DNA of 64,000 nt from a virus (IMGVR_UViG_2915650412_000004:11383-75382), one strand, 5' to 3'; counted from the first letter of the stretch, positions 16,928-35,951 are shown. Numbers and translations: made by a program. Notes: generated by a model not told the origin, from the letters alone.

Positions 16928-17004
16928 TGCGGAGTGGAGAAGTGGTCATCTCGTCTGGCTCATAACCAGAAGATCGTGGGTTCGAATCCCACCTGCCGCA
17001 ACCA
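16928..17004 (+). tRNA. tRNA-Met(CAT), fMet-like body
   Basis: Anticodon arm TCTGG-CTCATAA-CCAGA, T arm GTGGG-TTCGAAT-CCCAC, encoded CCA; one extra base in acceptor 3' strand. Confidence 0.85.
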
Positions 17005-18095: not shown

Positions 18096-19950
18096 TATGC
18101 CTGCGCTTGAGCGTGTGAGCGCTTATGCGCAAGCCGTCATTGATGGCAGAGAAGTTGCCGGCCCTCACGTTCGTAATGCCTGCCGCCGCCATTTCGACGA
18201 TCTCGAACACGGTCACGAGCGCGGCCTGTATTGGGATGACGACGCAGCCGACCGCGTGTTTCGGTTCTTTGAAGGGCGTCTCAAGCTTTCTGAAGGTCAG
18301 TTTGAAGGCAAGCCATTCAAGCTGCACGCCTCACAGGCTTTCAAGCTGGGTTCTCTCTTTGGCTGGAAACGTGCCGACGGTTCGCGCCGTTTTAGGCGCG
18401 CCTACATCGAGGAGGGCAAGGGTAATGGCAAGTCTCCGTTTGCTGGCGGTGTCGGTCTGTACGGGCTGATCGCGGACAAGGAAGCTGGCGCGCAGATTTA
18501 TGCCGCCGCTGCCAAGAAAGAACAGGCTGGGATTCTGTTTCAGGACGCCGTGAAAATGGTTCGCGCGGCTCCGGCGCTGGTCGAACGACTGAAGTTCAGC
18601 GGCGGTATCGGGCGCGAGTTCAATATCGCGCATCACAAGTCGCAATCGTTTTTTCGCCCGATCTCGAAGGATTCCGGCAAGTCTGGCTCTGGTCCGCGAC
18701 CGCATTTTGCGCTCTGCGACGAGGTGCACGAGCATCCCGACCGCTCGACGATGGAAATGCTTGAGCGCGGCTTTAAGTTTCGTCGTCAGCCGCTGCTGCT
18801 GATGATTACGAACTCGGGCAGCGACAGAAACAGCATTTGCTGGGAAGAACACGAGCATGCCGTCAAGGTAGCTGCTGGTACGCAAACGCCAGATGACGAT
18901 TTTACCTATGTCGGCGAGGTGATCGACGACACGACATTTTCCTATGTCTGCGCGCTGGACAAGGGCGACCATCCGCTCAAGGACGAAACCTGCTGGAAGA
19001 AGGCTAACCCGCTTCTGGGCGTTATCTTGACGCAGGAATATCTGGCCGGCGTTGTTGCTCAGGCAAAGCAGATGCCGGGCAAGCTGAACGGCATTCTTCG
19101 GCTGCACTTCTGCTGCTGGACCGATGCCGACAAGGCATGGATGCCGCGCGAGACCGTCGAAAGCGTAATGGACGATTTCGATCCTGAAGTCGAACACGCT
19201 GACAAACCCGTTTTCATGGGCGTCGACCTGTCCGGTAGCAAGGATATGACTGTGCTCGCGTGCGTTGTTCCTACTGGCTTCAAGGAAATGGAGCGGGAAG
19301 ACGGATCTACCGTCAATCTGCCGACGTTTGATGCGTGGGTGGAGGCTTGGACGCCAGCTGATACGCTGGAAGCGCGAGAACAGGCTGACAAGGCGCCATA
19401 TGCGCTTTGGGTAAAACAGGGGTGGTTGAATGCTCCGCCCGGCAAGCGAATTAGATATGATTTCGTGGCATCGCGGGTCCAGCAACTCGATCAGGCGTTC
19501 GATATCAAGGCCATCGCCTATGACCGCTATGCCTACGACAAGTTCCGCGAGGAAGTCGAAGCGCTCGGGTTGGACATTGAACATGTCGCGCACCCACAGG
19601 GCGGCAAGGTTCGGGCTCGGCCTGAGCCTGCGAAGGTAGAGGCTGCAAAAGCCGCTGGCTTACCGCCGCCGCAAGGCTTGTGGATGCCGGGCTCGGTTCT
19701 GGCGCTCGAAGACATGATCATCGACGGTCGCATTCGCATGCGCCGCAGTCCGGTGCTTATGACCGCCCTGATGGGTGCCACCTTCGATCATGACCCGCAA
19801 GATAACCGGTGGTTCGTGAAGACGAAGGCGTCAGTGCGCATCGACGCTGCTGTCGCTTTGGCAATGGCGGTTGGTGTGGCGATGGATACACCGATCGAGC
19901 CAGCCGACATCGACGACTTCGTCAACAACATGATCACTATAATTTACTAA
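18079..19950 (+). CDS. terL: Terminase large subunit; C-terminus supplied by the satellite att junction
   Basis: EGKGNGKS Walker A, CDEVHEH Walker B, GVDLSGSKD, RIDAAVA. Confidence 0.95.
   Translation: MICLTDMPALERVSAYAQAVIDGREVAGPHVRNACRRHFDDLEHGHERGLYWDDDAADRVFRFFEGRLKLSEGQFEGKPFKLHASQAFKLGSLFGWKRADGSRRFRRAYIEEGKGNGKSPFAGGVGLYGLIADKEAGAQIYAAAAKKEQAGILFQDAVKMVRAAPALVERLKFSGGIGREFNIAHHKSQSFFRPISKDSGKSGSGPRPHFALCDEVHEHPDRSTMEMLERGFKFRRQPLLLMITNSGSDRNSICWEEHEHAVKVAAGTQTPDDDFTYVGEVIDDTTFSYVCALDKGDHPLKDETCWKKANPLLGVILTQEYLAGVVAQAKQMPGKLNGILRLHFCCWTDADKAWMPRETVESVMDDFDPEVEHADKPVFMGVDLSGSKDMTVLACVVPTGFKEMEREDGSTVNLPTFDAWVEAWTPADTLEAREQADKAPYALWVKQGWLNAPPGKRIRYDFVASRVQQLDQAFDIKAIAYDRYAYDKFREEVEALGLDIEHVAHPQGGKVRARPEPAKVEAAKAAGLPPPQGLWMPGSVLALEDMIIDGRIRMRRSPVLMTALMGATFDHDPQDNRWFVKTKASVRIDAAVALAMAVGVAMDTPIEPADIDDFVNNMITIIY
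19922..19942 (+). repeat. Left att junction TCAACAACATGATCACtATAA
   Basis: 16-bp exact match plus ATAA, shared with 35952-35972. Confidence 0.9.
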
Positions 19951-19978
19951 GCTTAAAACTAGTAAGAAAATCAAATAG

Positions 19979-20004
19979 ATAGGCCCTTGGGTGGGCCTAT
20001 TTAT
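19979..20004 (+). terminator. Terminator-like hairpin immediately after terL
   Basis: ATAGGCCC-ttgggt-GGGCCTAT then TTAT. Confidence 0.55.
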
Positions 20005-20037
20005 AGCTAAAAGCCGCCGCTATGTATTCATTCGTAA

Positions 20038-20100
20038 AATCAATGGTTTAGCGTGAATTATCGAGAATTGACGGCTTCTCGATGCGACATTGATGCGACA
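20038..20100 (+). promoter_or_regulatory. IHF site and arm-type integrase site
   Basis: AATCAATGGTTTA matches WATCAANNNNTTR; GCGACA-N5-GCGACA at 20084-20100 is mirrored at 35904-35920. Confidence 0.55.
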
Positions 20101-20113
20101 AGAAAGGAAGCAC

Positions 20114-20320
20114 ATGGAACAGGAAAAAGAAGGGGCCGACCTGCTCTATGGCGTCCCTGCAATTGCAACGTTCCTCCGTATGAGTGAGCCCGCAGTTTAT
20201 CATTTATCCCGTCGTGCTGATTGGCCCGGATTCAAGATCGGCGGCAAGGTCTGCGCTCGCCGCTCAGCAATTGACCAGTGGATTTCCGACATGGAAGCAA
20301 AGGCGAGGTCAACACAATGA
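20114..20320 (+). CDS. Excisionase/AlpA-like HTH protein (satellite)
   Basis: ADLLYGVPAIATFL...FKIGGKVCARRSAIDQW; paralog of 34532-34735. Confidence 0.8.
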   Translation: MEQEKEGADLLYGVPAIATFLRMSEPAVYHLSRRADWPGFKIGGKVCARRSAIDQWISDMEAKARSTQ

Positions 20321-20412
20321 GCGTGGCGTTTCTGCTCGGCTACATGCTGATCTTCGGCGGTGCCATTGTTGGGCCGCGTCTGATGACGCAGGCAGGAAGC
20401 GCCGGGAAGTGA
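20317..20412 (+). CDS. 31-aa hydrophobic peptide
   Basis: MSVAFLLGYMLIFGGAIVGP..., fills the gap with ATGA coupling. Confidence 0.45.
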   Translation: MSVAFLLGYMLIFGGAIVGPRLMTQAGSAGK

Positions 20413-20413
20413 A

Positions 20414-21604
20414 ATGAAGCGCAAGCACGACATACCGGCATGGCGGCAGCAACAATTGGTCAGGCTGGCCTTACGCCATTCTGAGACAACTAAGGCTGAC
20501 TGCGCCGTCCTTGCGGAGATCGTGCAGCGATACCATGGCGAGTACGGCAACGGCTGGGCCAGCTTCGATATGCTCATTGAAGAGACTGGCCTGCATAAGA
20601 CCACAATCATCAAGGCAAAACGCAAGCTTGAACGGCTCGGCTTTGTTTCCGTCCTGTCACCGGGACGCAGGGGCCGCTCAACGGTCTACTTGCCGAATTT
20701 TGATTTAGTTCCCGAAAAAGGTAGTGCACAGACTACCGAAACAAAGGGTAGCGTAGACGCTACCGTAATTGATGGTTTGGGTAGTCAGGACGCTACCGAA
20801 TATGGCGCTTTAGGTAGCGTGGACGCTACCACCTCCTACTTACAGTTACCGGTTTACAAAACCGGTATACTGGAAAGTAATATTGACCCTGCTGCGCCGC
20901 CCATGGCTGGCCTTACGGCCGCCAGTGCAGGCGCGCATGGGGAAGGGAAATTCGACCAGCTATATAAAGCGTATGGCCACAGGCGGGGCAGGGCGGATGC
21001 TCGCAAGGCATATGAAGCCCTTGCACTGACCGACGAGGCACATGCCGACATATTGGCCGCCGCTGAGGCATGGCGTCAGGCATGGGCGAGGCAGGGTAAT
21101 CCTGATGCGCCACGCTTCACGCTCGCGAAGTGGCTGGAGCGCGAATGCTACCACGAAGACCCGCCGACCGGCTTTAAGTCCAAAGAGCCGAAGAAACCGA
21201 AATCGGAAAGTTTGCCTACCCGGAATGCGGCGACGGTAAGCCAGTCCGAAACGCCAGCGCCTGGTGAAGAATATGGCGCTATCGATGTTTGCGCGTTCAC
21301 TCCTACCGGCACCTTCGAGGCCGAGATAATCGGCAGCGATGTCATTGCTACCGGGAACGAAGTCGTGTTGCGGCTGAATCTTCAACTGTCTGACGGGAAA
21401 GGAACACCTCTCGGTGAGACAGCCCATGAATTTTTCGTGCAGGCGAATGAGAAATCCAAACAAGATCGCGGGCAGGCATTCCTTACACAAGTCGCAGAGG
21501 CAGTCGGCTTGAGGGCTCTTGAAGATTCGAGCGATTTTCACGGCAAGCGGTGCCGGGTCACGATCAATAACCGGCGAGAAATCACCTACCACAACACGAG
21601 GTAA
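20414..21604 (+). CDS. Satellite replication initiator: N-terminal wHTH, C-terminal DUF669-like domain
   Basis: WASFDMLIEETGLHKTTIIKAKRKLERLGF HTH; internal iterons; C-terminus resembles 333-884. Confidence 0.75.
   Translation: MKRKHDIPAWRQQQLVRLALRHSETTKADCAVLAEIVQRYHGEYGNGWASFDMLIEETGLHKTTIIKAKRKLERLGFVSVLSPGRRGRSTVYLPNFDLVPEKGSAQTTETKGSVDATVIDGLGSQDATEYGALGSVDATTSYLQLPVYKTGILESNIDPAAPPMAGLTAASAGAHGEGKFDQLYKAYGHRRGRADARKAYEALALTDEAHADILAAAEAWRQAWARQGNPDAPRFTLAKWLERECYHEDPPTGFKSKEPKKPKSESLPTRNAATVSQSETPAPGEEYGAIDVCAFTPTGTFEAEIIGSDVIATGNEVVLRLNLQLSDGKGTPLGETAHEFFVQANEKSKQDRGQAFLTQVAEAVGLRALEDSSDFHGKRCRVTINNRREITYHNTR
20720..20830. repeat. Four GGTAG-N8-CTACC iterons (satellite origin)
   Basis: 20720-20737, 20747-20764, 20780-20797, 20813-20830. 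Confidence 0.8.
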
Positions 21605-21606
21605 AT

Positions 21607-21858
21607 ATGGCGAATGACTTTTATGACGATGCAGTAGACGAACCAGAAGCCGCGGCACCGGTCCAGCATTTCACCTGCATGATCCAGATCGAGCCGTTTG
21701 ACGCTGAAACCGAAGACGATGAAAAGCTGCGCGTTGTCGGCATTGTGCAAGGCACAGACGATGAAACTTTTGATTTCATCGCGATCAAAACCCTCGAAAA
21801 TGGCGAGATGTACCCGACCCGTGAAGCCACGGTTTGGTCTGTTTCCCAAAAATCCTAA
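21607..21858 (+). CDS. Acidic hypothetical protein
   Basis: ACACGAGGTA RBS, coupled to rep. Confidence 0.65.
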   Translation: MANDFYDDAVDEPEAAAPVQHFTCMIQIEPFDAETEDDEKLRVVGIVQGTDDETFDFIAIKTLENGEMYPTREATVWSVSQKS

Positions 21859-21860
21859 TC

Positions 21861-21960
21861 ACAGATCGTCGTAGCGCCTGCTGTGGTGGCGGGCACCTAT
21901 TTGCTGCGACAGATCCCCCGCCCGGTCTCTCCTCCTCGTGTGCCGGGCGGGGGCGGTTTC
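21861..21960 (+). ncRNA. Candidate structured sRNA in the tRNA leader; loop antisense to the helper RBS motif
   Basis: Stem-loop ~21864-21914 and perfect 11-bp stem 21915-21925/21943-21953 with loop UCUCUCCUCCUCGUGUG. Confidence 0.55.
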
Positions 21961-22034
21961 TCGGCCTTCGCCTAACGGTAGGGCAGCGCACTTTGAATGC
22001 GCCGGTACTGGTTCGATCCCAGTAGGCCGATCCA
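21961..22034 (+). tRNA. tRNA-Gln(TTG) (satellite)
   Basis: Acceptor TCGGCCT/AGGCCGA, anticodon arm GCGCA-CTTTGAA-TGCGC, T arm ACTGG-TTCGATC-CCAGT, CCA. Confidence 0.9.
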
Positions 22035-22061
22035 TTTTTTCAAATACGGAGGCTATCGCCC

Positions 22062-22211
22062 ATGACGGAATCCGATCATGCCGAAAACAGCGAATCCGCA
22101 TTCGACGGCGCTCATCGTGGTCGGCGCATAAGTTGGGCCGAGTTATACCGGCAACGCCCGGACTTGAAGTCAAATTCTGAAAATCGAAAAGCCGCCGACG
22201 AGGCAGCTTAA
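22062..22211 (+). CDS. 49-aa peptide (MTESDH...ISWAELYRQRPDLK...DEAA)
   Basis: GGAGG RBS; not in the ORF track because of length. Confidence 0.55.
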   Translation: MTESDHAENSESAFDGAHRGRRISWAELYRQRPDLKSNSENRKAADEAA

Positions 22212-22278
22212 CGACCAAAAGCGCACCGCGCTTATTTCACCCACCAATTCCCAATTCTGCAAAATAGGAGGCGTCCCG

Positions 22279-22794
22279 ATGCGCAAATCGGCCGTCATTG
22301 AAATCCTTGCGCGCCGGCTCCGCATAGCGCCCGGACGCATTCAAGCAATCGCGGATCGCTTGGCCTCCGCTGGCCTGATTTCGAACGCCGAGGGCAGTAG
22401 GCGATATCCTCCTGACCTGTCCGAACCTGAAATCGTCACGCTGGTTATCGCGGTCATCGCCGATAGTGGCCTTGGCAACGTGAAAGCGACAGTTGACACG
22501 TTCTCGTCCTTGGCCAGCGAAGGGATTGCCTTCGGACACGTTCTTCAACGTGTGCTGTTCGGCCGCCCGGTGGATATCGCACACGTCATCGTCCGTCATG
22601 ACCCGGCAGGAGTGTCGGCGGTGATCGACGGCAATCATGCCGTCTATGGCGCTGAAGCACCTGAAAAAGCCGCAACGACGGCGCGCATCATTCCGGGCGA
22701 TGCACTGATTGCCATCGCCGCAGAACTGCAAGGCCAGCACCCCCAGCAGGCGGATGCCTTGGTCGAACTTATCAAAATTCGGAGATCGCTATGA
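22279..22794 (+). CDS. Hypothetical protein, possible N-terminal HTH; candidate late activator
   Basis: AGGAGG RBS; heads the satellite capsid operon. Confidence 0.65.
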   Translation: MRKSAVIEILARRLRIAPGRIQAIADRLASAGLISNAEGSRRYPPDLSEPEIVTLVIAVIADSGLGNVKATVDTFSSLASEGIAFGHVLQRVLFGRPVDIAHVIVRHDPAGVSAVIDGNHAVYGAEAPEKAATTARIIPGDALIAIAAELQGQHPQQADALVELIKIRRSL

Positions 22795-23081
22795 GCAAGG
22801 TTGAAGCGCTGCTCGACCGTTTGGCGGAAGCCACCGCCGAGTCCGACGACTACGCCGAACTGCCGCCCGAACTCGCTAAAGAGGCAAGGCTGCATGTCTG
22901 GGATGCGCATTACGCCAATTCAGACGAACGCGCCCGCTTGGACGCGAAACTGGCCGCTTCATCGCCTGAATTTCAGGCTGCTGTCGCGGTCACCGAAACG
23001 GCGCTGGCCGAAGAGCTTGCCGCCAATAATGAGCGACGCGCCCGCGTTCGCAGAGAAAACCCATCTTATTTCAAGGACTAA
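22791..23081 (+). CDS. Helical hypothetical protein before capsid gene
   Basis: Coupled ATGA overlap; Ala/Glu/Arg rich. Confidence 0.65.
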   Translation: MSKVEALLDRLAEATAESDDYAELPPELAKEARLHVWDAHYANSDERARLDAKLAASSPEFQAAVAVTETALAEELAANNERRARVRRENPSYFKD

Positions 23082-23083
23082 CT

Positions 23084-24175
23084 ATGACAAATCTCGCAAC
23101 TATGATTTCCGATCTGGGCAATGAATTCAAAGCCAGCACCGGCGACCTTTCCTCCCGCATCAGCGAGCTCGAAAAGCGTGCGGCTCGCGAGCCTTCCGGT
23201 GATATGCTCTATGCAAATGGCGAAACTATCGCCGACAAGATGGTAGAATCCGCAGCCTTCAAGTCGCTGGAGGGTGGTCGCGTCCGTGGCCGTGCGCACG
23301 TCGAAATGGCGGCCATCACTTCCGGCAACACTACCGTTGGCACTGGTCGCTCCGCAGCTACTTCGCTGGTGGGTGCTGATCGCCGCCCTGGCATTGTTAC
23401 ACCTGCCGAGCGCGTCCTGACCGTCCGTGACCTTATCGCTCCGGGCGAAACCAGCGCGGGCTCAATCGAATACGTGAAGGAAACGGGCTTTACCAATAAT
23501 GCCGCTCCCGTCGCTGAAACGACGCAGAAGCCTTACTCCGATCTGACATTCGATCTGGTGACGGCACCGGTCCGCACGATTGCGCACCTTTTCAAACTGT
23601 CAAAGCAGATCATGGACGATGCGCCCGGTCTCGTCAGTTATGTGAACGTGCGCGGTACGTCGGGCCTGAAGCTCAAGGAAGAGAACCAGCTTCTCTTCGG
23701 CGACGGTACAGGTCAGAACCTTTTGGGCCTGATTCCACAGGCAACCGTATTCGATGACGCGCTACGCTCCACGGGCGACACCCGCGTTGACACTCTGCGC
23801 CGTGCTATCCAGCAGGTACGCCGTGCCGAATACCGCGCATCCGGCATCATCATGAACCCGGACGACCTCGCCGACCTTGAACTGACCAAGGACGCCGGCG
23901 GCAACTACATTATTGTCGATCCCGTTGAAGGCGGTCAGGGCCGAGTGTGGCGTCTGCCTATCGTGGACACCACTGCAATGCCAGCGGGTCAGTTCCTCGT
24001 TGGTGCGCTCGATACGGCTGCCCAACTTTTCGACCGTCAACAGGTGATCTTCGAAATCTCGACTGAGAACGCCGACGATTTCGAAAAGAATATGGCGACT
24101 GCTCGTATCGAAGAGCGCCTGGCTCTTGCCGTGTATCGTCCGGAAAGCATCGTTACCGGCCAGTTCGAAGCCTAA
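23084..24175 (+). CDS. Satellite major capsid protein (HK97 fold)
   Basis: Colinear similarity to helper MCP (ITSGNTTVG, EYVKETGFTN, GDGTGQNL, IEERLALAVYRPE). Confidence 0.95.
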   Translation: MTNLATMISDLGNEFKASTGDLSSRISELEKRAAREPSGDMLYANGETIADKMVESAAFKSLEGGRVRGRAHVEMAAITSGNTTVGTGRSAATSLVGADRRPGIVTPAERVLTVRDLIAPGETSAGSIEYVKETGFTNNAAPVAETTQKPYSDLTFDLVTAPVRTIAHLFKLSKQIMDDAPGLVSYVNVRGTSGLKLKEENQLLFGDGTGQNLLGLIPQATVFDDALRSTGDTRVDTLRRAIQQVRRAEYRASGIIMNPDDLADLELTKDAGGNYIIVDPVEGGQGRVWRLPIVDTTAMPAGQFLVGALDTAAQLFDRQQVIFEISTENADDFEKNMATARIEERLALAVYRPESIVTGQFEA

Positions 24176-24268
24176 TCACGTTCAGGCGCCGTGAATGTCC
24201 GGCTGGCCCTGTCGGCAAGTTATGGAGCGCGGCGCCGTCCTCCTGAGAGCGCTTCACAACATGGGCAC

Positions 24269-24322
24269 GCCGCTGGCTGGAGTCCCCCGCTTTCGAGCGC
24301 GCAGCCAGCGGCTCTTCCTTTT
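24269..24322 (+). terminator. Long hairpin terminator after satellite capsid gene
   Basis: GCCGCTGGCTG...CAGCCAGCGGC then TCTTCCTTTT. Confidence 0.55.
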
Positions 24323-24327
24323 CAAGA

Positions 24328-24549
24328 ATGGAGATATCAATGCCTGTAGGCAGACTAAAAGCATGGCGTAACGGCTATGGCTTTCTCACAACGGACAACG
24401 GTTCGGACATGTTCGTCCATATCACCGCATTCCAATTCGCGGGCGAAGAGCCAGAAGTGGGTGCCTTTTACTCGTACAAGGCCGGGATGTTTAAGGACAA
24501 GATTATCGCGACCCATCTGAAGCGTGTGGATGATCATGGCGACGGGTAA
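24328..24549 (+). CDS. Cold-shock domain protein 1
   Basis: GRLKAW..GYGFL...DMFVHITAF (RNP1/RNP2). Confidence 0.85.
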   Translation: MEISMPVGRLKAWRNGYGFLTTDNGSDMFVHITAFQFAGEEPEVGAFYSYKAGMFKDKIIATHLKRVDDHGDG

Positions 24550-24766
24550 GGTCCTCTTTTTCCACAATGGCTACGGCTTCATCGCTGCCGAGCCTTGCAA
24601 CGTTTTCTTCCATCGCGCTGCCGTCGATGGCGATGTGCCAAAGGCTGGCGATATGGTCCGCTACGATGCCATGCCAAGTGGCAGGAGTAGCCCTAAGGCG
24701 AACAGCGTTCGCGTCATCGACCAGGACGTCTTGGCCGAAGCTGAGCGGGTGTTTGGGTCGCAATGA
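24536..24766 (+). CDS. Cold-shock domain protein 2
   Basis: MATGKVLFFHNGYGFI...VFFHRAAV. Confidence 0.85.
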   Translation: MATGKVLFFHNGYGFIAAEPCNVFFHRAAVDGDVPKAGDMVRYDAMPSGRSSPKANSVRVIDQDVLAEAERVFGSQ

Positions 24767-25059
24767 GTAGAGGTGAAAGCGCAGCTTGGCAGCACCTTTA
24801 TAAGCGGTCGAGATGGATCAAGATGCGTGAGCGACATCTGATGCAGTCGCCCTTGTGCGTTTATTGCCTTGAGGTTGGCAACGTGGAGCCTGCCACGATT
24901 TGTGATCATCGCACCCCGCATAGAGGGAGCGAGGATCTCTTCTGGGACGCTGACAATCTCATGTCCCTTTGCAAGCCCTGTCATGATCGGATCAAGCAGC
25001 GCGAAGAACGCGGAGAGAAGGTCATTCGATTTGGCGCGGACGGATACCCCATCGAGTGA
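24763..25059 (+). CDS. Satellite packaging HNH endonuclease
   Basis: PLCVYC...DHRTPHRG...LMSLCKPCH; homolog of 17310-17600. Confidence 0.9.
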   Translation: MSRGESAAWQHLYKRSRWIKMRERHLMQSPLCVYCLEVGNVEPATICDHRTPHRGSEDLFWDADNLMSLCKPCHDRIKQREERGEKVIRFGADGYPIE

Positions 25060-25135
25060 CCACCCACCCATAAGGGGGGCAATCGAAGTCTGGAAGCCGC
25101 TCGCTCTAGGAGCGGCCCGGACCCACAACGCATAC
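25057..25135 (+). promoter_or_regulatory. Probable satellite cos/packaging region
   Basis: Between HNH and terS; aligns with helper 17598-17670. Confidence 0.5.
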
Positions 25136-25172
25136 ACGTGCTGCCCCGGTTCAAATAAAAATTGGAGGCTCA

Positions 25173-25529
25173 ATGCCCAAAAACCCCACAAATTCAGCGG
25201 TCAAACCGCCAAAACACCTGCGAAAACCAACGCAAAATTGGTTCAAATCTGTAATAGACGACTTCGATTTGGAGCCTCATCATATCAAATTGCTAACTCT
25301 TGCTGCTGATGCGTGGGATCGGGCGGTCTCTGCGCGCGAAGTAATCGACGCGGATGGGATGACTTACACCGACCGTTTCGGGCAGCCGAAGCCACGCCCA
25401 GAAGTCGCAATCGAGCGTGACTCCCGCATCGGCTTCACCCGCCTTATTCGCGAGCTTGCTTTGGATGGCGTGGATGCTCCAGAAACGCCGCGCCCACCGC
25501 GCACTGCCGACTACGGGAATAGGCGCTGA
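25173..25529 (+). CDS. terS: Satellite terminase small subunit (P27-like)
   Basis: PPKHL...W...GQPKPRPEV.IE......RLIRELAL. Confidence 0.8.
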   Translation: MPKNPTNSAVKPPKHLRKPTQNWFKSVIDDFDLEPHHIKLLTLAADAWDRAVSAREVIDADGMTYTDRFGQPKPRPEVAIERDSRIGFTRLIRELALDGVDAPETPRPPRTADYGNRR

Positions 25530-25765
25530 TGCCCGTTCGTCGCAAAGCCGATAGACGACGCACGACGTTTCTGTTTGAAGATTGGGGGGAATTCCTCGGC
25601 ACCGGCATCGACATGTTCTCCGATCTTCACCACGCCGGGATTACGGTCGACCACGAGCCGCCGCCACGCGAACTGGCCGAACAGGCTTGGCGCGCTCTTG
25701 GTGCGCAGATTGTCTCCGCCTATGGCACCGAGTGCTGGGGCGCGCGCGAATTTGGGCAATCCTGA
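25529..25765 (+). CDS. Hypothetical protein (MPVRRK...)
   Basis: Coupled TGATG overlap. Confidence 0.65.
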   Translation: MPVRRKADRRRTTFLFEDWGEFLGTGIDMFSDLHHAGITVDHEPPPRELAEQAWRALGAQIVSAYGTECWGAREFGQS

Positions 25766-26037
25766 TGCCGGTTCGGAAAAGACACAACCGGCGAGCCGAC
25801 CGAGTGGATTTCGAGATTACGCCTGAAATACGCGCCGCGTTTGAAGCCTACATCGAAAGCGAACCCGTCGAGGGTGGCGGTTGGCGTGAGCATTGGCGTT
25901 TGCACGATCTACTGCATGAGGCGGGCGTCTTGAGGCTGCCATATTGCCCGCCGTGCTGCTTCCATCCACAGGATCACGGAACCAGATGGCAATATGCGCC
26001 CCATGCTGTGGCCATCTACCGCCATCTTTCACAGTAA
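25765..26037 (+). CDS. Hypothetical protein (MPVRKR...)
   Basis: Coupled TGATG overlap, ATG at 25765. Confidence 0.6.
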   Translation: MPVRKRHNRRADRVDFEITPEIRAAFEAYIESEPVEGGGWREHWRLHDLLHEAGVLRLPYCPPCCFHPQDHGTRWQYAPHAVAIYRHLSQ

Positions 26038-26039
26038 AT

Positions 26040-26063
26040 GCCCGCCGTTGAGCGGGCTTTTTT
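26040..26063 (+). terminator. Intrinsic terminator
   Basis: GCCCGC-cgttga-GCGGGC then T6. Confidence 0.7.
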
Positions 26064-26076
26064 ATGAGGTACATTC

Positions 26077-26445
26077 ATGTCCGATAAGCCTTTTTCACAG
26101 ATTACGCAGCCATTTGGCGACGGCGAATATAACTTCGCGCTGACTTGGGATGGCGCGATTGAGTGGGAAGAAAAAACGAGCCGTAGCCTTTATGGCACCT
26201 TCAAATTTATGGCCGAACATCAAAGTGGATTGGTTGCCGATGTGCGCGAAATTATCCGCATCGCATTAGTCGGTGGCGGACTGGCTCCGATACGGGCTCT
26301 GTCGCTGGTCAAGCGATATGTGGAGGGGCGTCCGCTTGATGAAAGCCTACCCGTCGCACTGAGCGCAATCGAGGCTTTCCTTTTCGGTCCCGACGATAAA
26401 TCCGGCGACACCGCCAAGACGGGAGAAGTCCCAGCCGATGGCTAA
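26077..26445 (+). CDS. Satellite tail assembly chaperone (GTA gp10-like)
   Basis: FGDGEYNFALTW...VREIIRIALVGGGL.P..A..LVKRYVE; homolog of 43374-43814. Confidence 0.8.
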   Translation: MSDKPFSQITQPFGDGEYNFALTWDGAIEWEEKTSRSLYGTFKFMAEHQSGLVADVREIIRIALVGGGLAPIRALSLVKRYVEGRPLDESLPVALSAIEAFLFGPDDKSGDTAKTGEVPADG

Positions 26446-26878
26446 GAAATGGCACGCATCGGCAGCGTTCAAAAAGAGGCTGGCGAAGCTGCCGGCATCT
26501 GTTCTCAAAAGGACCAATGAGGCCATCAAGAAGAACGCCGAGGAATGGGTGGACTGGGCGCAGAAGATGGCCCCGGAAGACCCGAAAGACGGCATTCATC
26601 TGAGGCCTTCGATCCGCAATTACGAATCTGAAACCGGCGGCCAGGTGGTTCGTGCAGGTGGCGAGGCGACAACCGTGAACGGTTACGATTATGCCCTTGG
26701 CGTCGAGTTTGGAACCGCGCCTCACATCGCAGGCGGTCAATTCGAAGGTGCGCATCATCCGGGTACGTCAGGGCAGCCGTTCTTTTGGCCCTCATATCGA
26801 ATGCTGCGAAAGCGAATGTCTGGTCGTCGCCGACGCGCACTGAATCAAGCCGTGAAGGATTTCAACGATGGCAAGTGA
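26438..26878 (+). CDS. Satellite HK97 gp10-like tail completion protein
   Basis: YALGVEFGT...QPFFWPS; homolog of 41147-41614. Confidence 0.8.
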   Translation: MAKKWHASAAFKKRLAKLPASVLKRTNEAIKKNAEEWVDWAQKMAPEDPKDGIHLRPSIRNYESETGGQVVRAGGEATTVNGYDYALGVEFGTAPHIAGGQFEGAHHPGTSGQPFFWPSYRMLRKRMSGRRRRALNQAVKDFNDGK

Positions 26879-29084
26879 ACCCGCCCTCTATGCTCGTATG
26901 GAAATGCGCGTGAAAGATGCCGAGAAGCAACTGGCGAAGTTCAGTCAGCGACTCGACCAATCGGCCGGCAGCATGGAGCGGCGATGGAGCCGTGCCTCCA
27001 AAAACATGCAGACGTCAATGTCAAAGGCATTCGGCGGCAGCAGTTTGGCGAAGGGCATTTTTGCGGGCGTTTCGGCTGCGGGCGCAAAAGAACTGATTGA
27101 CGCCGCTATCCGTATCGAGAATGCGTTGAAAGTGGCCGGCCTGTCTGGCCAGCAATTGAATGACGTATATGACCGCCTGTTTCAGAGTGCGACCAAAAAC
27201 GCAGCGCCACTTGAAACACTGGTCACGCTGTACGGCCGCGTTTCCTTGGTCCAAAAGAACCTCGGTGCATCGACCGAAGATCTTTTGAAATTCACCGATA
27301 GTATCGCCATGGCGCTACGGGTGGCAGGCACTAGCCCGGAACAGGCCAGCGGCGCTTTGCTCCAGCTTTCGCAGGCTCTCGGCAGCGGGACGGTGAGAGC
27401 AGAAGAATTCAATTCTATGATGGAAGGCGGTTTGCCGATCCTTCAAGCCGCGGCAGCGGGCATCAAAGAGGCTGGCGGCGATGTCGCGAAGTTGCGCAAC
27501 ATCATGCTGGACGGTGAATTATCTTCAAAGGCGCTCTTCAAAGGCATTGAGGCCGGAACGCCCATTCTGGAAGAGCGGCTCGCGGGCGCTGTTCTGACAA
27601 TTGATCAGCGCATGACGAATCTGAAAACGGCGCTGGTCGATGCGGCGAAGCGCTTTAATAACTCGACGGAGGCAGCCAATACCTTCGGCACCGCCATCGA
27701 CAATACCGCTGCGTTTATCAACAATATCAACTTTGAGACGTTCATCTCCAAGATAAATCAGGTTGTGGAGGCTTTTGCCAGAGGCCAGGCGGCTGCCAAT
27801 AACTTTGCCAATGACGTTGGCGCGGCTCTCGGTCTGGATAATATCGGCAAGTTGCTAACCGGCGGCGAAGCGCAGAAGAGCTTCCTTGGTGGTGCGTTGA
27901 CGATTACGTCATCGAAAGTTATTCAAGACCGCATTACCGATGCATTCAAGGGCGGTGCAGTCGAGGGCAGTGCCGAAATGGACAAGGTTCTGCGCGAGAA
28001 GTACGGGAAAGGCGCCCGCCTTAAGCCAGAAAGTACAAACCCCGGCACCACTGCGCAATTCACCCCAGTATCCATCAAGGATTTCCCCGCAGACGGTGCC
28101 GGCAAGGATAAGAAGAAGAAAAGCGGCAGCAAAACCCACGCCAAAACCGCTGACCAGCAGATCGATAGCGACATTCAGTCGGTCCGCGATCGAATTGCAG
28201 CGATGCAGCTTGAAACGCAGCTTGTAGGCAAGTCGTATCAGGAGCAGGAAAAGCGGCGTATGTCGCTGGAGCTGGAGCAGGCAGCACTCGCCAAGCTTCG
28301 TGACGAGGCGATCAAGAAAGGTCAGACTGACCTTTCGAATATCAAGATTTCAGAAGAAACACGCGGCAAGATTGACGCTGTGTCCGAGGCTTATGCAAGG
28401 CAAGCAGAAGAACTTCGCCGAGTTCAAGACCAGCAAGACCGAGCAGAGCAGGCGGCAGACGATTTCTACGATACGTTCAAAAGCAGCACGGTGGGCGCAA
28501 TTACCGGCGCTAATAGCCTTGCCGACGCATTGCAGAACATTGCGAATAAGCTGGCAGACCTCTTCTTGAGTGCAGGTTTCGATGCCTTGTTTAAGCCATC
28601 TTCTGGCGGGGTCGGAGGCGGTGCCTTCGGAAGTATATTCAGCGGGCTGGGCAAGCTCATCGGCTTTGACAGCGGCGGCTACACGGGCCCCGGTGGCGTT
28701 AAGCAGCCAGCAGGCGTCGTTCACAAAGGTGAGGTCGTATGGTCCCAAGATGACATTCGCCGCGCCGGAGGCGTCGGTAAGGTCGAAGCCATGCGTCGCG
28801 GCCTTGCTGGTTACGAGCGGGGCGGGGCGGTGAGTATGCCTTCACTATCGGCACCGCGTATGCCCGACCTTTCGCGCATCACGAACAACAGTAATAGCAC
28901 GGTCAACAGCGCGCCTGTGATTAACGTGACTGTGAATGGGGCTACTGGCGATAAGGAAATTGAGGCTCGCGCTTTCTCTGGCGCCCAGAGAGCGATCATG
29001 CAGTGGCAAAAAACGCCGTATTTCGCCCAAGCCGTTGCTGGCGGCGTTAAACAGGCAAATAAGCGCGGGATGCTACCCCGCTAA
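26868..29084 (+). CDS. Satellite tape measure protein (738 aa)
   Basis: LLQLSQALGSGTVRAEEFNS tape-measure domain; GFDSGGYTG...AGVVHKGE motif. Confidence 0.9.
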   Translation: MASEPALYARMEMRVKDAEKQLAKFSQRLDQSAGSMERRWSRASKNMQTSMSKAFGGSSLAKGIFAGVSAAGAKELIDAAIRIENALKVAGLSGQQLNDVYDRLFQSATKNAAPLETLVTLYGRVSLVQKNLGASTEDLLKFTDSIAMALRVAGTSPEQASGALLQLSQALGSGTVRAEEFNSMMEGGLPILQAAAAGIKEAGGDVAKLRNIMLDGELSSKALFKGIEAGTPILEERLAGAVLTIDQRMTNLKTALVDAAKRFNNSTEAANTFGTAIDNTAAFINNINFETFISKINQVVEAFARGQAAANNFANDVGAALGLDNIGKLLTGGEAQKSFLGGALTITSSKVIQDRITDAFKGGAVEGSAEMDKVLREKYGKGARLKPESTNPGTTAQFTPVSIKDFPADGAGKDKKKKSGSKTHAKTADQQIDSDIQSVRDRIAAMQLETQLVGKSYQEQEKRRMSLELEQAALAKLRDEAIKKGQTDLSNIKISEETRGKIDAVSEAYARQAEELRRVQDQQDRAEQAADDFYDTFKSSTVGAITGANSLADALQNIANKLADLFLSAGFDALFKPSSGGVGGGAFGSIFSGLGKLIGFDSGGYTGPGGVKQPAGVVHKGEVVWSQDDIRRAGGVGKVEAMRRGLAGYERGGAVSMPSLSAPRMPDLSRITNNSNSTVNSAPVINVTVNGATGDKEIEARAFSGAQRAIMQWQKTPYFAQAVAGGVKQANKRGMLPR

Positions 29085-29151
29085 GCGTATTGGATGCCCT
29101 TCGGGGTGTCCTGTAACCGCCTATTGATATTGATGATTGGCGCCTGTCGCA

Positions 29152-29166
29152 GAACGTGATTGGAAC
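29152..29166 (+). promoter_or_regulatory. Alphaproteobacterial LexA (SOS) box
   Basis: GAAC-GTGATTG-GAAC, overlapping a putative -35 upstream of CTATAT. Confidence 0.6.
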
Positions 29167-29232
29167 AATTCTCAGGCGTTCCTATATAAAACGCTGAACA
29201 TGTATGAAAAATGTACAGGTCAGCTAAGCTTG

Positions 29233-29267
29233 CGTGCTACGAAACGAGACGCGAGTTTCGTAGCACG
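29233..29267. promoter_or_regulatory. Perfect 13-bp inverted repeat (operator or hairpin) upstream of the TA pair
   Basis: CGTGCTACGAAAC-N9-GTTTCGTAGCACG. Confidence 0.55.
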
Positions 29268-29334
29268 TTGCTTAACATTCGTCAATATGTTAAGTGATGG
29301 CATTAACTGAACACCAGACAGAAAGGAACGTGCA

Positions 29335-29529
29335 ATGGCAGTTATCTCAAGCGCGTTCGGTCAGGTGAAATTGACCGATGACGACGCTAAGAAGTTTCGT
29401 AATCAGGTGACATTCGGTAAACCAAAAGCAGCCGCACATGAGACTGTCAAGAAAGGGCGCGAGCTCTTCAAGGAGTTTCAGGGCAAGGGTAAAGTGAAGT
29501 TTACCGTCAAGGCAGCCACGGGGGAATAG
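29335..29529 (+). CDS. Putative antitoxin resembling the toxin-binding half of DUF1778 (AtaR/TacA) antitoxins
   Basis: VKLTDDDAKKF...KPKAA; directly upstream of GNAT. Confidence 0.55.
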   Translation: MAVISSAFGQVKLTDDDAKKFRNQVTFGKPKAAAHETVKKGRELFKEFQGKGKVKFTVKAATGE

Positions 29530-30060
29530 TTGCCGAACGACGAATTCGAAGTTGAACTAAGACTGATAGAGCCCAGTGATAAAGTCACTGGGCTTTCTCT
29601 TGGCAGTGAGGAGTTCACGCCGCTGAAGATGTTTATTCAGCGGAAAGCCAAGGATTATCAGGTCAATAGTTTTGCCAGGACTTATGGTCTGTTTGGCCCT
29701 GAGGCGAAACTGATCGGTTATATCACGCTCATCTGCGGCGAGATCCTGACAAAGACGCCCCAGGACGTGATTCCGCCAGAACAGATCTACGACTACAAAA
29801 CATTTCCATCTGTGAAGATTGCCCGCCTTGCCGTCGACAGACGATATCAGGGCAAGGGACTGGGCGATTATCTGGTTTCTTTTGCGATAGGTGTTGTCAA
29901 GGACGCGATTGCGCCTCACGTCGGTTGTCGTTTCGTCGTTGTTGATTCGAAACAGTCAGCGGTGAGGTTTTATGAGCGTCTCGGCTTCACGCTGCTTGAT
30001 ACAGCTACGAACAGGGCCAACGAACAGCCGGTGATGTATCTCGACATCCTTAAAGCCTGA
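29530..30060 (+). CDS. GNAT acetyltransferase toxin (AtaT/TacT-like)
   Basis: IARLAVDRRYQGKGLG, VGCRFVVVDSK..AVRFYERLGF. Confidence 0.85.
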   Translation: MPNDEFEVELRLIEPSDKVTGLSLGSEEFTPLKMFIQRKAKDYQVNSFARTYGLFGPEAKLIGYITLICGEILTKTPQDVIPPEQIYDYKTFPSVKIARLAVDRRYQGKGLGDYLVSFAIGVVKDAIAPHVGCRFVVVDSKQSAVRFYERLGFTLLDTATNRANEQPVMYLDILKA

Positions 30061-30243
30061 TTAGCGTTGATTTCTCAATGATGCGTTCCTGAGCGCCCGT
30101 CGTAGGGCGTTTCACCCGGGATTCCTGTGAACATCCCCTAGCATCAGGGCGGCGCGGGTTGTGCAGGTGGTCCCTTCCAATCATTCTACCTTGGGGCGAG
30201 ACAGGGAGATAAATGCAACCTAACTCACCAAAGCGAGATCACC

Positions 30244-30474
30244 ATGAATACCATTCCTTACACCGCGTCTCTTTCCTGCGGCACTTGCGGCACAAAGGGC
30301 GTTCGAATTGACGACGATGCGGACGAAAATTCCATCGTTAGATGTAAGAATCCCGACTGCGACACAACTTTCGGCACTTGGGGAGATGTCCGAAAAATGG
30401 TTCGCGAAAAAACGGCGAAGAAAGCCAAGGATGACATCGTTGCATCGCTGAGAAAATCTCTGCGGAAGAGATGA
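30244..30474 (+). CDS. Small Zn-ribbon protein
   Basis: CGTC...CKNPDC, basic tail. Confidence 0.6.
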   Translation: MNTIPYTASLSCGTCGTKGVRIDDDADENSIVRCKNPDCDTTFGTWGDVRKMVREKTAKKAKDDIVASLRKSLRKR

Positions 30475-30548
30475 CGTGCGGCGCCCTTCGGGGCGTCTCA
30501 ACGTCAACTATAGATTGATTATTCCACCGAGAACAATTATTCAACCTC

Positions 30549-31727
30549 TTGGTGGAGGGGCTTGTGAAAAAACTAACAATTCGTTATCGGCGCCGGCTTT
30601 TATATTGGGCTAACAAAAGGTCGCGCAAGAAAAACTCAGGCACGGCCAAATTTGGTTATGTTCTGAGCGCAGATAGATTCGACCAAGTAAGGCTACCGTC
30701 AAACGCGATACAGATGCCGAAAGTGTTTTGTTTAGTGCAAAACACCGAACAAACGCTGTCGTTTCTGGAAAAAACGAGGCAGCGGTTGCTTGCCCCCCCA
30801 TTGTCTGGAACGAGGTCTCTCGCGGCACATGTAACTGGGAAAAGGAAAAATAAATCCGCGCCGCGATGGATAGGCCCTTATGTTGACTTTACAACCATAG
30901 AATTCATCAGCCCAGCCGCGGCTCTGGTGCTTGCTGCGGAATATCACAGGGCTGTTCTACTGAAAGAACAGAGCACGAAGAATATTTCTCGGCTGTTCTT
31001 GGTCGACGTTCATAAATGGAAGGCAAATGTAATAGAGAGCTTGATTGAAGTAGGATTCTTTGAGCTTTTGAAAATCACTGAAGGTGTACAGGCGCCAGAA
31101 GAGGGGGACCGGAAAATTCTAAAACTTCGCAGTGGCAGTCGAAATCAAGCTGATGAAGTGGATGGATTGCTCAATAGTATTGAGGAAATGTTCAGTGGTG
31201 TAGGTTTGAACGCCAACGATGCGTGCTTTGAACTTAACGGCGCATTGGGCGAGGCAATGGAGAATGCAGTCCGTTGTGCCTATCCAACTGAAATTTCTTT
31301 TGGCCGACCTCATGTTTCAAAGTGGTGGATGACAGGATCACTTTCGAAGGCTCAGCGTCAAATGACTGTGGCGATATATGATCAGGGAGTATCTATACCA
31401 GGTTCGCTTAGTAGTTGGCAGCTTTACGGTGGATTCCTAAACCGATTTCTAAGGAAGTTCGGTATGGCAAGAGATAGCGCCGACCCCAGATTTGATGGAG
31501 ATGTCATCGCACTGGCAATCGATGAATCTGTTACGTCTACGGGATTGCAAAAACATGGTAAGGGTTTGGGTCATATAAAGGCTTTTATCGATTCCTGTAG
31601 CGCTGGCAGTCTGTTAATTATAAGTAGGCAGGGAATGTATATATATGAAAAAGGGAAGCCGCCTCTCACGTACAATTTACCGATAAGATTATCAGGTACA
31701 TTGATCCAGTGGAACGTTGTAATTTAA
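30549..31727 (+). CDS. STAS-like plus GHKL (HATPase_c) kinase/ATPase
   Basis: VDFTTIEFISP (STAS-like); EAMENA N-box, DQGVSIP G1, GKGLG G2; start uncertain. Confidence 0.75.
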   Translation: MVEGLVKKLTIRYRRRLLYWANKRSRKKNSGTAKFGYVLSADRFDQVRLPSNAIQMPKVFCLVQNTEQTLSFLEKTRQRLLAPPLSGTRSLAAHVTGKRKNKSAPRWIGPYVDFTTIEFISPAAALVLAAEYHRAVLLKEQSTKNISRLFLVDVHKWKANVIESLIEVGFFELLKITEGVQAPEEGDRKILKLRSGSRNQADEVDGLLNSIEEMFSGVGLNANDACFELNGALGEAMENAVRCAYPTEISFGRPHVSKWWMTGSLSKAQRQMTVAIYDQGVSIPGSLSSWQLYGGFLNRFLRKFGMARDSADPRFDGDVIALAIDESVTSTGLQKHGKGLGHIKAFIDSCSAGSLLIISRQGMYIYEKGKPPLTYNLPIRLSGTLIQWNVVI

Positions 31728-31757
31728 TGGGAGTTAACCTTTAGAAGGTTAAATCAA

Positions 31758-32120
31758 ATGAGCTTGAGAGTCATCGAAGTGCTGGATATTGGAAGAGATT
31801 TTACACTGACGCCTGGTGCTCGGTATAAAAAGCATGGAGATTTTTCTGGCGAAGAATTTCGAACTAAACTTCTGGCTCCTGCTTTGCGGCGTGTAATCAA
31901 TGCCGACGGGGTTCTGAATGTTGTCATTGATACTGTGAAAAGAAGCTATCTGGTTTCTTTTTTAGACGAAGCTTTTGGCGGTTTAATAAGAGACGAAGGC
32001 TTTTCTCTAGAGCAAACAAATCAGCATTTAAATATTGTAAGCTCGAATAAGCGATTCGAGAAATATAGAATACTAGCAAAAAACTATATTCTCCGGGCAT
32101 CTGAAGAGCATGCCAAGTAA
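31758..32120 (+). CDS. Stand-alone STAS-like (DUF4325-type) protein
   Basis: PGARY...SGEEFR...SFLDEAFGGL. Confidence 0.8.
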   Translation: MSLRVIEVLDIGRDFTLTPGARYKKHGDFSGEEFRTKLLAPALRRVINADGVLNVVIDTVKRSYLVSFLDEAFGGLIRDEGFSLEQTNQHLNIVSSNKRFEKYRILAKNYILRASEEHAK

Positions 32121-32595
32121 CATTAGCCCAATTTTGCCAATTGTTAGTTTGCTGAGCGCATTTATAGGAGCCGCCGCTGCACTCTTTGGTCACCGCTGGC
32201 GTTACCGTGCAGATTACCGAAATCATTTGGTTACACAACTTATCACCACAATTACCAATGTTGCGGATCTTTCAACCGATTATTGGCTCATGGAAATACA
32301 TTCTCCAAGCTCTGCTAACGCATTGGAGCAAGCTAAGATCGAGGCAAAAATAGAAGGCTTGGTCGAAAAACTGGACGGCAGTATTGAAATAGTTCGACCG
32401 CACTTGAGCAAAATTGATATGTTGGGAATTGATATTCCTGCATCTAGGTTTGTTGATGCCTTAACCGGTGGTCAGTTCTCTGTGCCAGCTCGTGCTCAAG
32501 ATGCTGAACGTGCAAAAGAGGCACAGGCAGCTGCGGCCTTCTTGATATTGGAGATATCTAAAGCTGCGAATCGTCGAGTACTTGGCATTATGTAG
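32110..32595 (+). CDS. Membrane-anchored hypothetical protein
   Basis: N-terminal TM helix, overlaps the STAS gene. Confidence 0.7.
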   Translation: MPSNISPILPIVSLLSAFIGAAAALFGHRWRYRADYRNHLVTQLITTITNVADLSTDYWLMEIHSPSSANALEQAKIEAKIEGLVEKLDGSIEIVRPHLSKIDMLGIDIPASRFVDALTGGQFSVPARAQDAERAKEAQAAAAFLILEISKAANRRVLGIM

Positions 32596-32721
32596 AAGTT
32601 AATATTGGAAATTCTAGTACTAACTTTAGATAGGCTTTAACCAACACGGTATTACTGACTTGTGCTCTTAAAGCATTCCAGTTCCAACCGATTGCGGAAT
32701 TCAGCTATCGCGGTCATGAAG

Positions 32722-33078
32722 CTACATCGATATGTCGTTAAGCTGCCAGCTATTACCTTCAGGCATATAAGTCACGTCAGCGCGGTATTGAGTTCTCAAT
32801 TTCGCTCCGAACGAGTTTTCAGCATCCACGTAGGCATTTACGGTGTATTTGCACCTATCGCGCTCAACCACGCTCACACCGTCAGAATTCGTGCCCCATG
32901 GGAATGAGGCTGTGGCGGGTGCTTTGAGGCGCTTCTTTACGAATTCCTGAGAGATCACGAAGGCCATGGTCTTTGAACCACATGCGTTCGGGTCTTTTCT
33001 CTTATTCACCTCGCTATACAACCACGCTGCACCGATAATTGTGGCCAGGACTACGATTGCCTTACGTCTTTGCCCCAT
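32722..33078 (-). CDS. Membrane-anchored exported protein
   Basis: N-terminal TM; VDAENSFGA...Y. Confidence 0.7.
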   Translation of the reverse strand: MGQRRKAIVVLATIIGAAWLYSEVNKRKDPNACGSKTMAFVISQEFVKKRLKAPATASFPWGTNSDGVSVVERDRCKYTVNAYVDAENSFGAKLRTQYRADVTYMPEGNSWQLNDISM

Positions 33079-33178
33079 GAAATCCCCCGGTTGAACGGGC
33101 TTTCCATAGCATAGGCAAGCCTTGCCCCGAAAGGGGAGACTTTAACTTGAATTTTACGATGATTTCGGTAAGGGTATT

Positions 33179-33480: not shown

Positions 33481-33487
33481 GACCACA

Positions 33488-35931: not shown

Positions 35932-35951
35932 ATCGCTGATTTCATTGGCAC

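Follow-up and report, generated by a model that had tools for sequence, protein, structure and literature searches.

P4 and the Staphylococcus aureus pathogenicity islands (SaPIs) remodel the capsids of their helper phages, and phage-inducible chromosomal islands of the capsid-forming type (cf-PICIs) make a complete head and borrow tails. SaPIbov5 shrinks capsids to small T=4 shells by means of Ccm, a homologue of the capsid protein (PMC8569155). For the phage-inducible chromosomal island-like elements (PLEs) of Vibrio cholerae, described in 2026, experiments have shown that chimeric tails are made with a satellite tape measure protein (TMP), chaperone and hub (PMC12987554), and putative tmp genes are also reported for some cf-PICIs (PMC12987554, Extended Data Fig. 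10). The EPIPs of Mycolicibacterium aichiense were isolated as free particles with smaller heads and altered tail length (preprint PMC12822802). Here we describe a further locus of this general kind. It lies in a 64,000-nucleotide stretch of viral DNA, IMGVR_UViG_2915650412_000004:11383-75382 (hereafter the window, meaning the whole stretch), in which a mobile element with its own block of virion genes at 22279-29084 is nested in a prophage. We refer to this prophage as the helper.

We propose that the element belongs, as an intact copy, to a hitherto undescribed family of phage satellites in Alphaproteobacteria, and that it brings selected virion parts of its own while taking the others from a helper, a reading to which we assign a probability of roughly 60%. 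An earlier reading, made from the sequence alone, had listed counterparts of the helper major capsid protein (MCP), packaging HNH endonuclease, small terminase subunit (TerS), tail chaperone, gp10-type protein and TMP. All six lie where it had placed them, as judged by Pfam and PHROGs matches; five also match the helper by blastp, and TerS does so through phrog_83. The absences that it reported, of portal, protease, large terminase subunit (TerL), tube and tail tip, were upheld by hidden Markov model (HMM) scans, six-frame Pfam searches and tblastn, and no connector gene was recognised. Its gene list was correct for the genes it named and otherwise incomplete: s171, s96, two cold-shock-domain proteins, s78 and s91 also belong to the block. 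The synteny search that it had suggested returned the same selective parts list in 11 other loci. Its idea of a strategy that substitutes components on both the head and the tail lines is supported, and we infer that these parts are incorporated into particles.

Gene content of the element

The element occupies 19922-35972 (16.05 kb), between the helper terL and portal genes. The att sites posited by the sequence-only reading are real: a direct repeat within the last codons of terL (attL, 19922-19942, + strand, as are all element features given here) recurs just 5' of the portal gene (attR, 35952-35972). The copies at 19922 and 35952 share 16 identical bp, or 20 of 21 bases when extended. This repeat was found by targeted comparison of the terL end with the portal start; a generic scan of the 16-35 kb interval for direct repeats did not reveal an att site. 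At the right end lie a tyrosine integrase (34735-35931; phrog_1, 1.5e-58) and an AlpA-like helix-turn-helix (HTH) gene (34469-34735; weak HTH_17 match). The left end holds a second AlpA-like gene, for a small excisionase-like HTH protein whose translation shares a motif with its right-end paralogue (20090-20320), and a replication initiator (20414-21604) that matches HTH_36 and phrog_270. With its att repeats, tyrosine integrase, AlpA-like proteins and replication initiator, the element is a discrete integrative unit. A megablast of the element against a phage collection gave no match.

The satellite MCP (23084-24175) has the HK97 fold (PF05065, 2.8e-58; phrog_10) and is 57% identical to the helper MCP over 359 residues (helper residues 54-410, E 6e-137, blastp). 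Canonical MCPs begin to align with the helper MCP at residue 2-31 in 67 of 70 loci, with a median of 16 that is probably the true helper start. In all satellite MCPs, the alignment begins at helper residue 53-73. These alignments indicate an N-terminal delta (scaffold) domain that is ~35-50 residues shorter in satellite than in phage MCPs; every satellite MCP lacks the first 35-55 residues present in those 67 canonical proteins. In a maximum-likelihood tree, the 12 satellite MCPs formed two exclusive, well-supported clades, apart from the MCPs of phages from the same genus; the tree is compatible with a single origin. Because the satellite MCPs occupy clades of their own and always have the shortened N-terminus, their sequences indicate that the satellites have long had a capsid gene dedicated to them, its scaffold domain shortened, and did not capture it recently.

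Two small genes precede the capsid gene. The first, s171 (22279-22794, 171 residues), has no Pfam or PHROG family; Foldseek searches of the PDB and BFVD returned nothing at E<=0.001, and the ESM Atlas held unnamed clusters only. Its AlphaFold model (pLDDT 91) best matches the fold of CvkR, a MerR-type regulator (VIA-align, Z 6.2, 130 residues aligned), with the next row at only Z 3.8. By this model, s171 is probably a MerR-like DNA-binding regulator of the morphogenesis block. The second, s96 (22791-23081), encodes, judging from its translation, a small acidic helical protein of 96 residues. Most members of the family have a gene in this slot, poorly conserved in sequence, and we regard s96 as a candidate scaffold or size factor. 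A tblastn match in one related locus, L094, had raised the possibility that s96 is the N-terminal part of the capsid delta domain, split off as a separate gene; the match proved to be a weak read-through over a stop codon with no real similarity.

The packaging genes follow the capsid gene. After two overlapping cold-shock-domain-like genes (24328-24549 and 24524-24766, by CSD matches), a pair kept in loci L093, L094, L096, L098 and L099, comes a packaging-type HNH endonuclease (24763-25059; PF01844; phrog_2323, 4.9e-34) that is 46% identical to the helper HNH (17310-17600; blastp). HNH is an accessory gene in the family: several members lack it or carry a pseudogene. The satellite TerS (25173-25529) is of the P27/Terminase_4 type (PF05119) and was found in 10 of the 11 loci whose sequence covers the slot; it has phrog_83 in common with the helper TerS, yet the two give no blastp alignment. 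The spacer between HNH and TerS (25060-25172) is conserved among the satellites and contains a 24-bp block also present in the HNH-TerS spacer of the helper. The block has a local score of 23, against 15.3+-2.3 for shuffled sequences, of which 4 in 1000 reach 23. On the strength of this shared block, the spacer is a candidate cos or terminase recognition site that may be cut by the helper TerL.

TerS is translationally coupled to s78 (25529-25765, 78 residues), and s78 to s91 (25765-26037, 90 residues), the start codons overlapping the preceding stops (TGATG). Both small proteins are conserved (dN/dS 0.06-0.12), with an invariant PPCC.HP motif, and both begin with MPVR(R/K)(K/R), encoded at a repeated CTGATGCC(C/G)GTTCG junction (25529-25545 and 25765-25781). 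From their sequences they look like paralogues with a basic N-terminus, and they are probable packaging accessory factors. The s91 model is helical (pLDDT 71), and its fold search gave no informative match (best Z 3.8). A 151-residue open reading frame (ORF) at 25582-26037 was considered as a hidden tail tube and rejected: gene calls in relatives show the 78- and 90-residue genes, and the long ORF is an upstream over-extension of 25765-26037.

An intrinsic terminator (26040-26063; six GC pairs, then TTTTTT), the top + strand terminator-like site of the element, separates this head and packaging block from a tail cassette of three genes. The first encodes a tail assembly chaperone of the gene transfer agent (GTA) gp10 type (26077-26445; PF11836, 6.5e-9; phrog_8985), 29% identical to the helper protein at 43374-43814. 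PHROGs names this family 'tail tube'; the helper member holds the chaperone position, 3' of the true major tail protein. The second is a tail completion protein of the HK97 gp10/lambda gpZ/SPP1 gp16.1 class (26438-26878; PF04883; phrog_5, 9.5e-13), 33% identical to its helper counterpart (41147-41614). These two identities are from blastp. The third is the TMP (26868-29084; PF20155, 3.5e-48; phrog_17300, 2.8e-80), with 738 residues against 805 in the helper and an identity of 26-30% by blastp and tblastn.

Chaperones bind the TMP during tail assembly. [quoted passage not shown] Because completion proteins contact the TMP and DNA end and chaperones bind the TMP, the satellite would bring its TMP together with both direct partners and leave tube, terminator and tip to the helper, a mechanistically sensible division by analogy with these systems.

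The C-terminal half of the satellite TMP (28080-29084) shares 56% and 54% identity with the TMPs of two further prophage-like regions in the genome (G000:C23:247637-248713 and G000:C1:597775-598668), versus 29% with that of the flanking helper. The Dit of the C23 prophage is 72% identical to the helper Dit. The C1 region (G000:C1:588849-598668) contains a portal, a gp10-like gene, a weak TerL ATPase match and a 668-residue TMP in an unusual order; its MCP, in an open frame of 382 residues, is 52% identical to the satellite MCP.

No ORF of the element matched a family of portal, TerL, protease, Ad1 (adaptor), Hc1 (head closure), tail terminator, tube, Dit or hub proteins in HMM scans against Pfam and PHROGs. 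When 19 helper virion proteins were searched against the element DNA by tblastn at E<=1, only the five paralogue pairs and chance matches of 14-24 residues appeared; the portal gave a chance match only, and TerL and protease gave none. Six-frame Pfam searches of the whole genome, with PF04860 for portal and PF03354 for TerL, located portals at four sites, TerL ATPase domains at three and capsid genes at five; of all these, one capsid gene alone falls inside the element. The same tblastn approach detects portal and TerL beside MCP homologues in Pseudomonas, Enterobacterales and Acinetobacter, so diverged copies in the element would have shown. The sequence-only reading had named portal or TerL homologues hidden among the hypothetical proteins as one thing that could overturn it. 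The unassigned proteins of the structural block are all <=171 residues, and no unassigned ORF of the element is long enough for a portal. The models further indicate that s171, with a MerR-like and not a protease fold, and the small helical s91 cannot be portal, terminase, protease or tube. As for connectors, no sequence match to Ad1 or Hc1 was found, s78 and s91 belong to no family and s91 has no informative fold match.

It had also named decay, and of this the window copy gives no evidence. All its ORFs are intact, and dN/dS is 0.04-0.21 for every computable gene, measured against two diverged copies (dS 0.1-1.4). Its gene order, with MCP before HNH-TerS and chaperone before completion protein, is unlike that of canonical phages: in a scan of genomes from ~185,000 species, 74 of 76 loci with MCP homologues had the order HNH-TerL-portal-MCP. 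Because of this order, the lack of relics, these dN/dS values and the recurrence of the layout, the sequence evidence indicates that the window copy is not a decayed prophage.

Related elements and the helper prophage

Eleven more loci, from at least three genera and from metagenomes, share the layout, with different integrases, cargo and insertion sites. The 12 loci comprise the window, G019, Brucella intermedia, Ochrobactrum sp. BH3, Phyllobacterium sp. YR531, Ferranicluibacter rubi and six more, among them metagenome-assembled genomes and metagenome assemblies. G019, a Rhizobiales isolate of the same genus as the window host, is the closest relative. The family order is s171, a small ORF, MCP, the cold-shock-domain pair (optional), HNH (optional), TerS, s78, s91, a tail slot and cargo. 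Its hallmark is s171, which lies 5' of the satellite MCP in 12 of 12 loci, either directly or one small ORF away; the s171 family has 23 close clusters, and a profile search across 1.8 billion representatives brought up 67. None of the 12 elements has a portal, protease or TerL gene inside it, and no connector gene was recognised in any.

The tail slot varies. The full trio of chaperone, completion protein and TMP is present in the window, L093, L095 and L098; G019 adds a tail terminator homologue to it, and L097 a fibre-like protein. L096 has a fibre-like protein only, L094 and L099 have a TMP with small ORFs, and in L018 nothing was recognisable in the slot. From such sequences, some satellites of the family may also swap the receptor-binding part. 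The fibre-like proteins (L096:13675-14844 and L097:17393-19141) have the same N-terminal families, phrog_24607 and phrog_17834, as the fibre encoded by the helper at 53569-54603.

The alleles are mosaic, in that the completion-protein, TerS, HNH or TMP of some members is nearer to the window helper than to the window satellite. In G019, the completion-protein gene (L017:13351-13788) has an in-frame TAG at codon 25 and the TMP gene has a 1-nt deletion at about codon 559 that shifts the frame (L017:15440-15470); the head and packaging genes are all intact.

The defence-like cargo behind the tail cassette differs from member to member; in L093-L099 it includes AbiTii with Mrr, Fic, an M78 peptidase, or CTD12/MC8/DUF2326. 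In the window, the slot (29530-32595) holds a GNAT acetyltransferase, a HATPase-like protein, a STAS-like protein and a protein of 161 residues. PHROGs searches with the extra ORFs of a distant relative, L101, and the ORFs following the TMP in L094 and L098 returned no families. The window element also has a tRNA-Gln upstream of its structural block (21961-22034, ARAGORN).

Three members sit within prophage head modules. The window element lies at the end of terL; in L098 (4881-5699), the insertion is within a portal gene, and the element follows the part of it that ends at about residue 275 of 414; and in L102 (2784-5242), the element integrase begins 90 bp after the prophage MCP gene. Because of these three insertions together, the family seems repeatedly to target helper morphogenesis operons.

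The helper is a + strand prophage that dominates the window, with clamp, helicase, methyltransferase and primase genes for replication. Its HNH (17310-17600), TerS (17709-18095; phrog_83) and TerL (18010-19950) genes are followed, after the 16-kb interruption, by head and tail genes at 35983-53549. These encode, in order, portal, protease, MCP, a decoration-like protein, Ad1, Hc1, the HK97-gp10-type completion protein, an EndoVII-like protein, tail terminator, major tail protein, the GTA-gp10-type chaperone, the 805-residue TMP, Dit, hub proteins and fibre-like proteins; an endolysin is also present. The tail module is broken twice, at 41641-42420 by the endonuclease VII-like gene between completion protein and terminator, and at 43941-44983 by two minus-strand ORFs (214 and 114 residues) between chaperone and TMP. 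Both interruptions look like moron or homing-type insertions. A tRNA-Met (16928-17004) lies just 5' of the helper HNH gene, and the helper of L098 likewise has a tRNA-Met before HNH.

A proposed chimeric virion and its alternatives

How might such an element form particles? More specifically than the reading above, and more tentatively, at somewhat less than even odds, we suggest that this is an undescribed satellite family of the Rhizobiales (Hyphomicrobiales) making doubly chimeric virions: shells of short-scaffold MCP on the helper portal, and helper tubes around a satellite TMP, capped by the satellite completion protein. A swappable tail slot (TMP trio, terminator or fibre) would retune which phage tails can be used, and insertion into the head-gene operon of a helper would be a repeated event.

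On the broader reading given first, the satellite MCP would, in the head, assemble on the helper portal, and the helper protease would mature the shell. Smaller shells would fit a 16-kb genome and exclude a helper genome of at least 42 kb, and s96 may assist. Two considerations suggest small shells, perhaps T=4: SaPIbov5 Ccm offers an analogy (PMC8569155), and scaling a ~40-kb genome by (4/7)^1.5 gives a length near 16 kb. For packaging, the satellite TerS, with s78, s91 and HNH, would direct the helper TerL to a satellite cos, probably in the HNH-TerS spacer. The separate cassette behind the terminator would then provide the TMP and its direct binders, the chaperone and the completion protein. 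Around this satellite core, tube, terminator, Dit, hub and fibres from the helper would assemble. Chimeric tails would be ~10 nm shorter than those of the helper (738 versus 805 residues, 67 fewer, at ~0.15 nm/residue). The whole morphogenesis block would probably be controlled by s171.

Several points weigh against this scheme. Each functional step is read from genes alone, and the capsid-size argument is arithmetic only. The cos assignment depends on a modest similarity (z ~3.4). The flanking prophage may not be the tail donor, or not the sole one, because the C-terminal half of the satellite TMP is far nearer to those of two further prophages in the genome. Nor is the tail cassette found throughout the family: it is absent in Ferranicluibacter, replaced by a fibre-like gene in L096 and reduced to a TMP with small ORFs in L094 and L099. 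Finally, the two lesions in G019 mean that the cassette is dispensable or decaying in at least one lineage, or they are assembly errors.

Alternative explanations divide over what the satellite proteins would do. The satellite MCP could act like Ccm, filling some positions, such as pentamers, in shells made mostly of helper MCP and forcing a smaller shell. The Ccm of SaPIbov5, itself a capsid-protein homologue, occupies the pentamers of T=4 shells (PMC8569155); a satellite without its own portal and protease must already suit the helper head proteins, and the two MCPs are 57% identical. The satellite protein nevertheless has the full length of an HK97-type MCP and a shortened delta domain of its own, and old satellite-only clades fit a self-sufficient shell protein equally well. 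The sequence data do not discriminate between these two roles. We consider co-assembly doubtful, at about one chance in four in our estimation. Less probable still, and in our view unlikely, is an island devoted to interference, whose capsid, completion-protein and TMP homologues would be dominant-negative 'poison' subunits that spoil head and tail assembly of the helper or other phages and so protect the host population, without being built into element-carrying particles. Satellites and prophages that block virion or tail assembly are known, according to two reports (PMC11364771, PMC10884400), and Rta of PLE11 is another example (PMC12987554). The element bears defence-like cargo, and its parts are 26-57% identical to those of the helper, a degree of divergence at which mixed assemblies could fail. 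Against this, TerS, HNH and a cos-like spacer are only sensible if element DNA is packaged, and the chaperone, completion protein and TMP go together as compatible partners, unlike poison subunits that would come singly. Interference and self-transfer are in any case not exclusive, as both coexist in PLE11.

The two remaining explanations do without a satellite altogether. All six structural genes belong to ordinary phage families and the G019 tail genes carry two lesions, as would suit the degraded remnant of a second HK97-like prophage that has lost portal, protease, TerL, connectors, tube and tail tip by deletion. Deletion alone, though, cannot reach the order of MCP before HNH-TerS and chaperone before completion protein from a canonical phage; no relics were detected at E<=1, ORFs are intact with dN/dS of 0.04-0.21, and the same selective set occurs in 11 other loci with different flanks, its MCPs in clades of their own. 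This explanation is largely refuted, and we hold it to be very improbable. [quoted passage not shown] The element has no portal, TerL, tube, tail tip or lysis genes inside it, a tailed particle is impossible without these parts, and we give this last explanation almost no credence.

A satellite that supplies part of the virion and borrows the rest is thus the reading we prefer. If it is true, chimeric tails would be a general satellite strategy and not a Vibrio peculiarity, and a capsid protein alone, without portal or protease, would be enough to take over head size. The family would also be a natural system for learning at which virion interfaces parts of 26-57% identity can be mixed. The choice of a TMP with two partners fits the recent neck structure, in which the N-termini of the tape measure and the end of the DNA are clamped by the completion protein. 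Because the family occurs in the Brucella/Ochrobactrum group and carries variable, defence-like cargo, it is also relevant to gene flow in these bacteria.

Comparison with known satellites

A literature search turned up no described satellite in Brucella, Ochrobactrum or Rhizobiales, which is not proof of absence, nor did we find one for the Alphaproteobacteria. Set beside the definition of classical PICIs (PMC6092414), the element has the integrase-regulator-replication-packaging layout, an att site and a length of 16.05 kb against ~10-16 kb. That definition also specifies no phage structural genes, and here MCP, completion protein and TMP are present.

Like the element, cf-PICIs have an integrase, AlpA and a replication module, with a satellite HK97-type MCP, TerS and HNH; they differ in encoding portal, protease, TerL and connectors and in borrowing tails only (10.1101/2022.09.08.507074; definition as summarised in PMC10690885). 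The element thus shares with them the integrase/AlpA/replication module and an HK97-type MCP of its own and lacks their portal, TerL and protease. SaPIbov5 is likewise a satellite of an HNH-dependent cos phage, with a capsid homologue and no portal, protease or TerL. It differs in using the helper TerS and HNH, in having no tail genes, and in belonging to another host phylum with no evident sequence relationship (PMC5052747, PMC8569155). The element, for its part, encodes a TerS and an HNH endonuclease as well as the tail trio of chaperone, completion protein and TMP.

On the tail side, the nearest likeness is to PLE11 and its relatives, which by their description use their own TMP and chaperone and hijack the tube, baseplate and fibres of the helper; tail parts there are 20-41% identical to those of the helper, and 26-33% here (PMC12987554). 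The combination of satellite TMP and cognate chaperone that marks PLEs is found in the element as PF20155 and PF11836 in one cassette. PLEs differ in that their helper is a lytic myovirus, the baseplate hub is among the substituted parts, and helper capsids are remodelled by the scaffold TcaP, with no capsid protein of their own (PMC12987554). The element, by contrast, has a temperate RcGTA-like siphovirus as its helper, a completion protein in place of the hub, and its own MCP, TerS and HNH. EPIPs, too, are small, with TerS, MCP and TMP reported and few other virion genes. They are actinobacterial, their integrase is of the serine type, and they also encode a scaffolding protein along with a head-to-tail adaptor and a stopper (PMC12822802), whereas the present family has a tyrosine integrase (phrog_1 in the window, Phage_integrase in relatives) and no recognisable adaptor or stopper, and adds chaperone, completion protein and HNH.

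The sequence-only reading had left SaPIbov5 Ccm, the chimeric tails of PLEs and the EPIPs out of its background, and the strategy is accordingly less unprecedented than it implied. Precedents exist for the capsid homologue (SaPIbov5), for the chimeric-tail set (PLEs) and for TerS, MCP and TMP together (EPIPs), and the element differs from these systems in its other parts, integrase type, host and helper type. The family would thus stand between the known strategies on the head and tail lines at once, in the Alphaproteobacteria.

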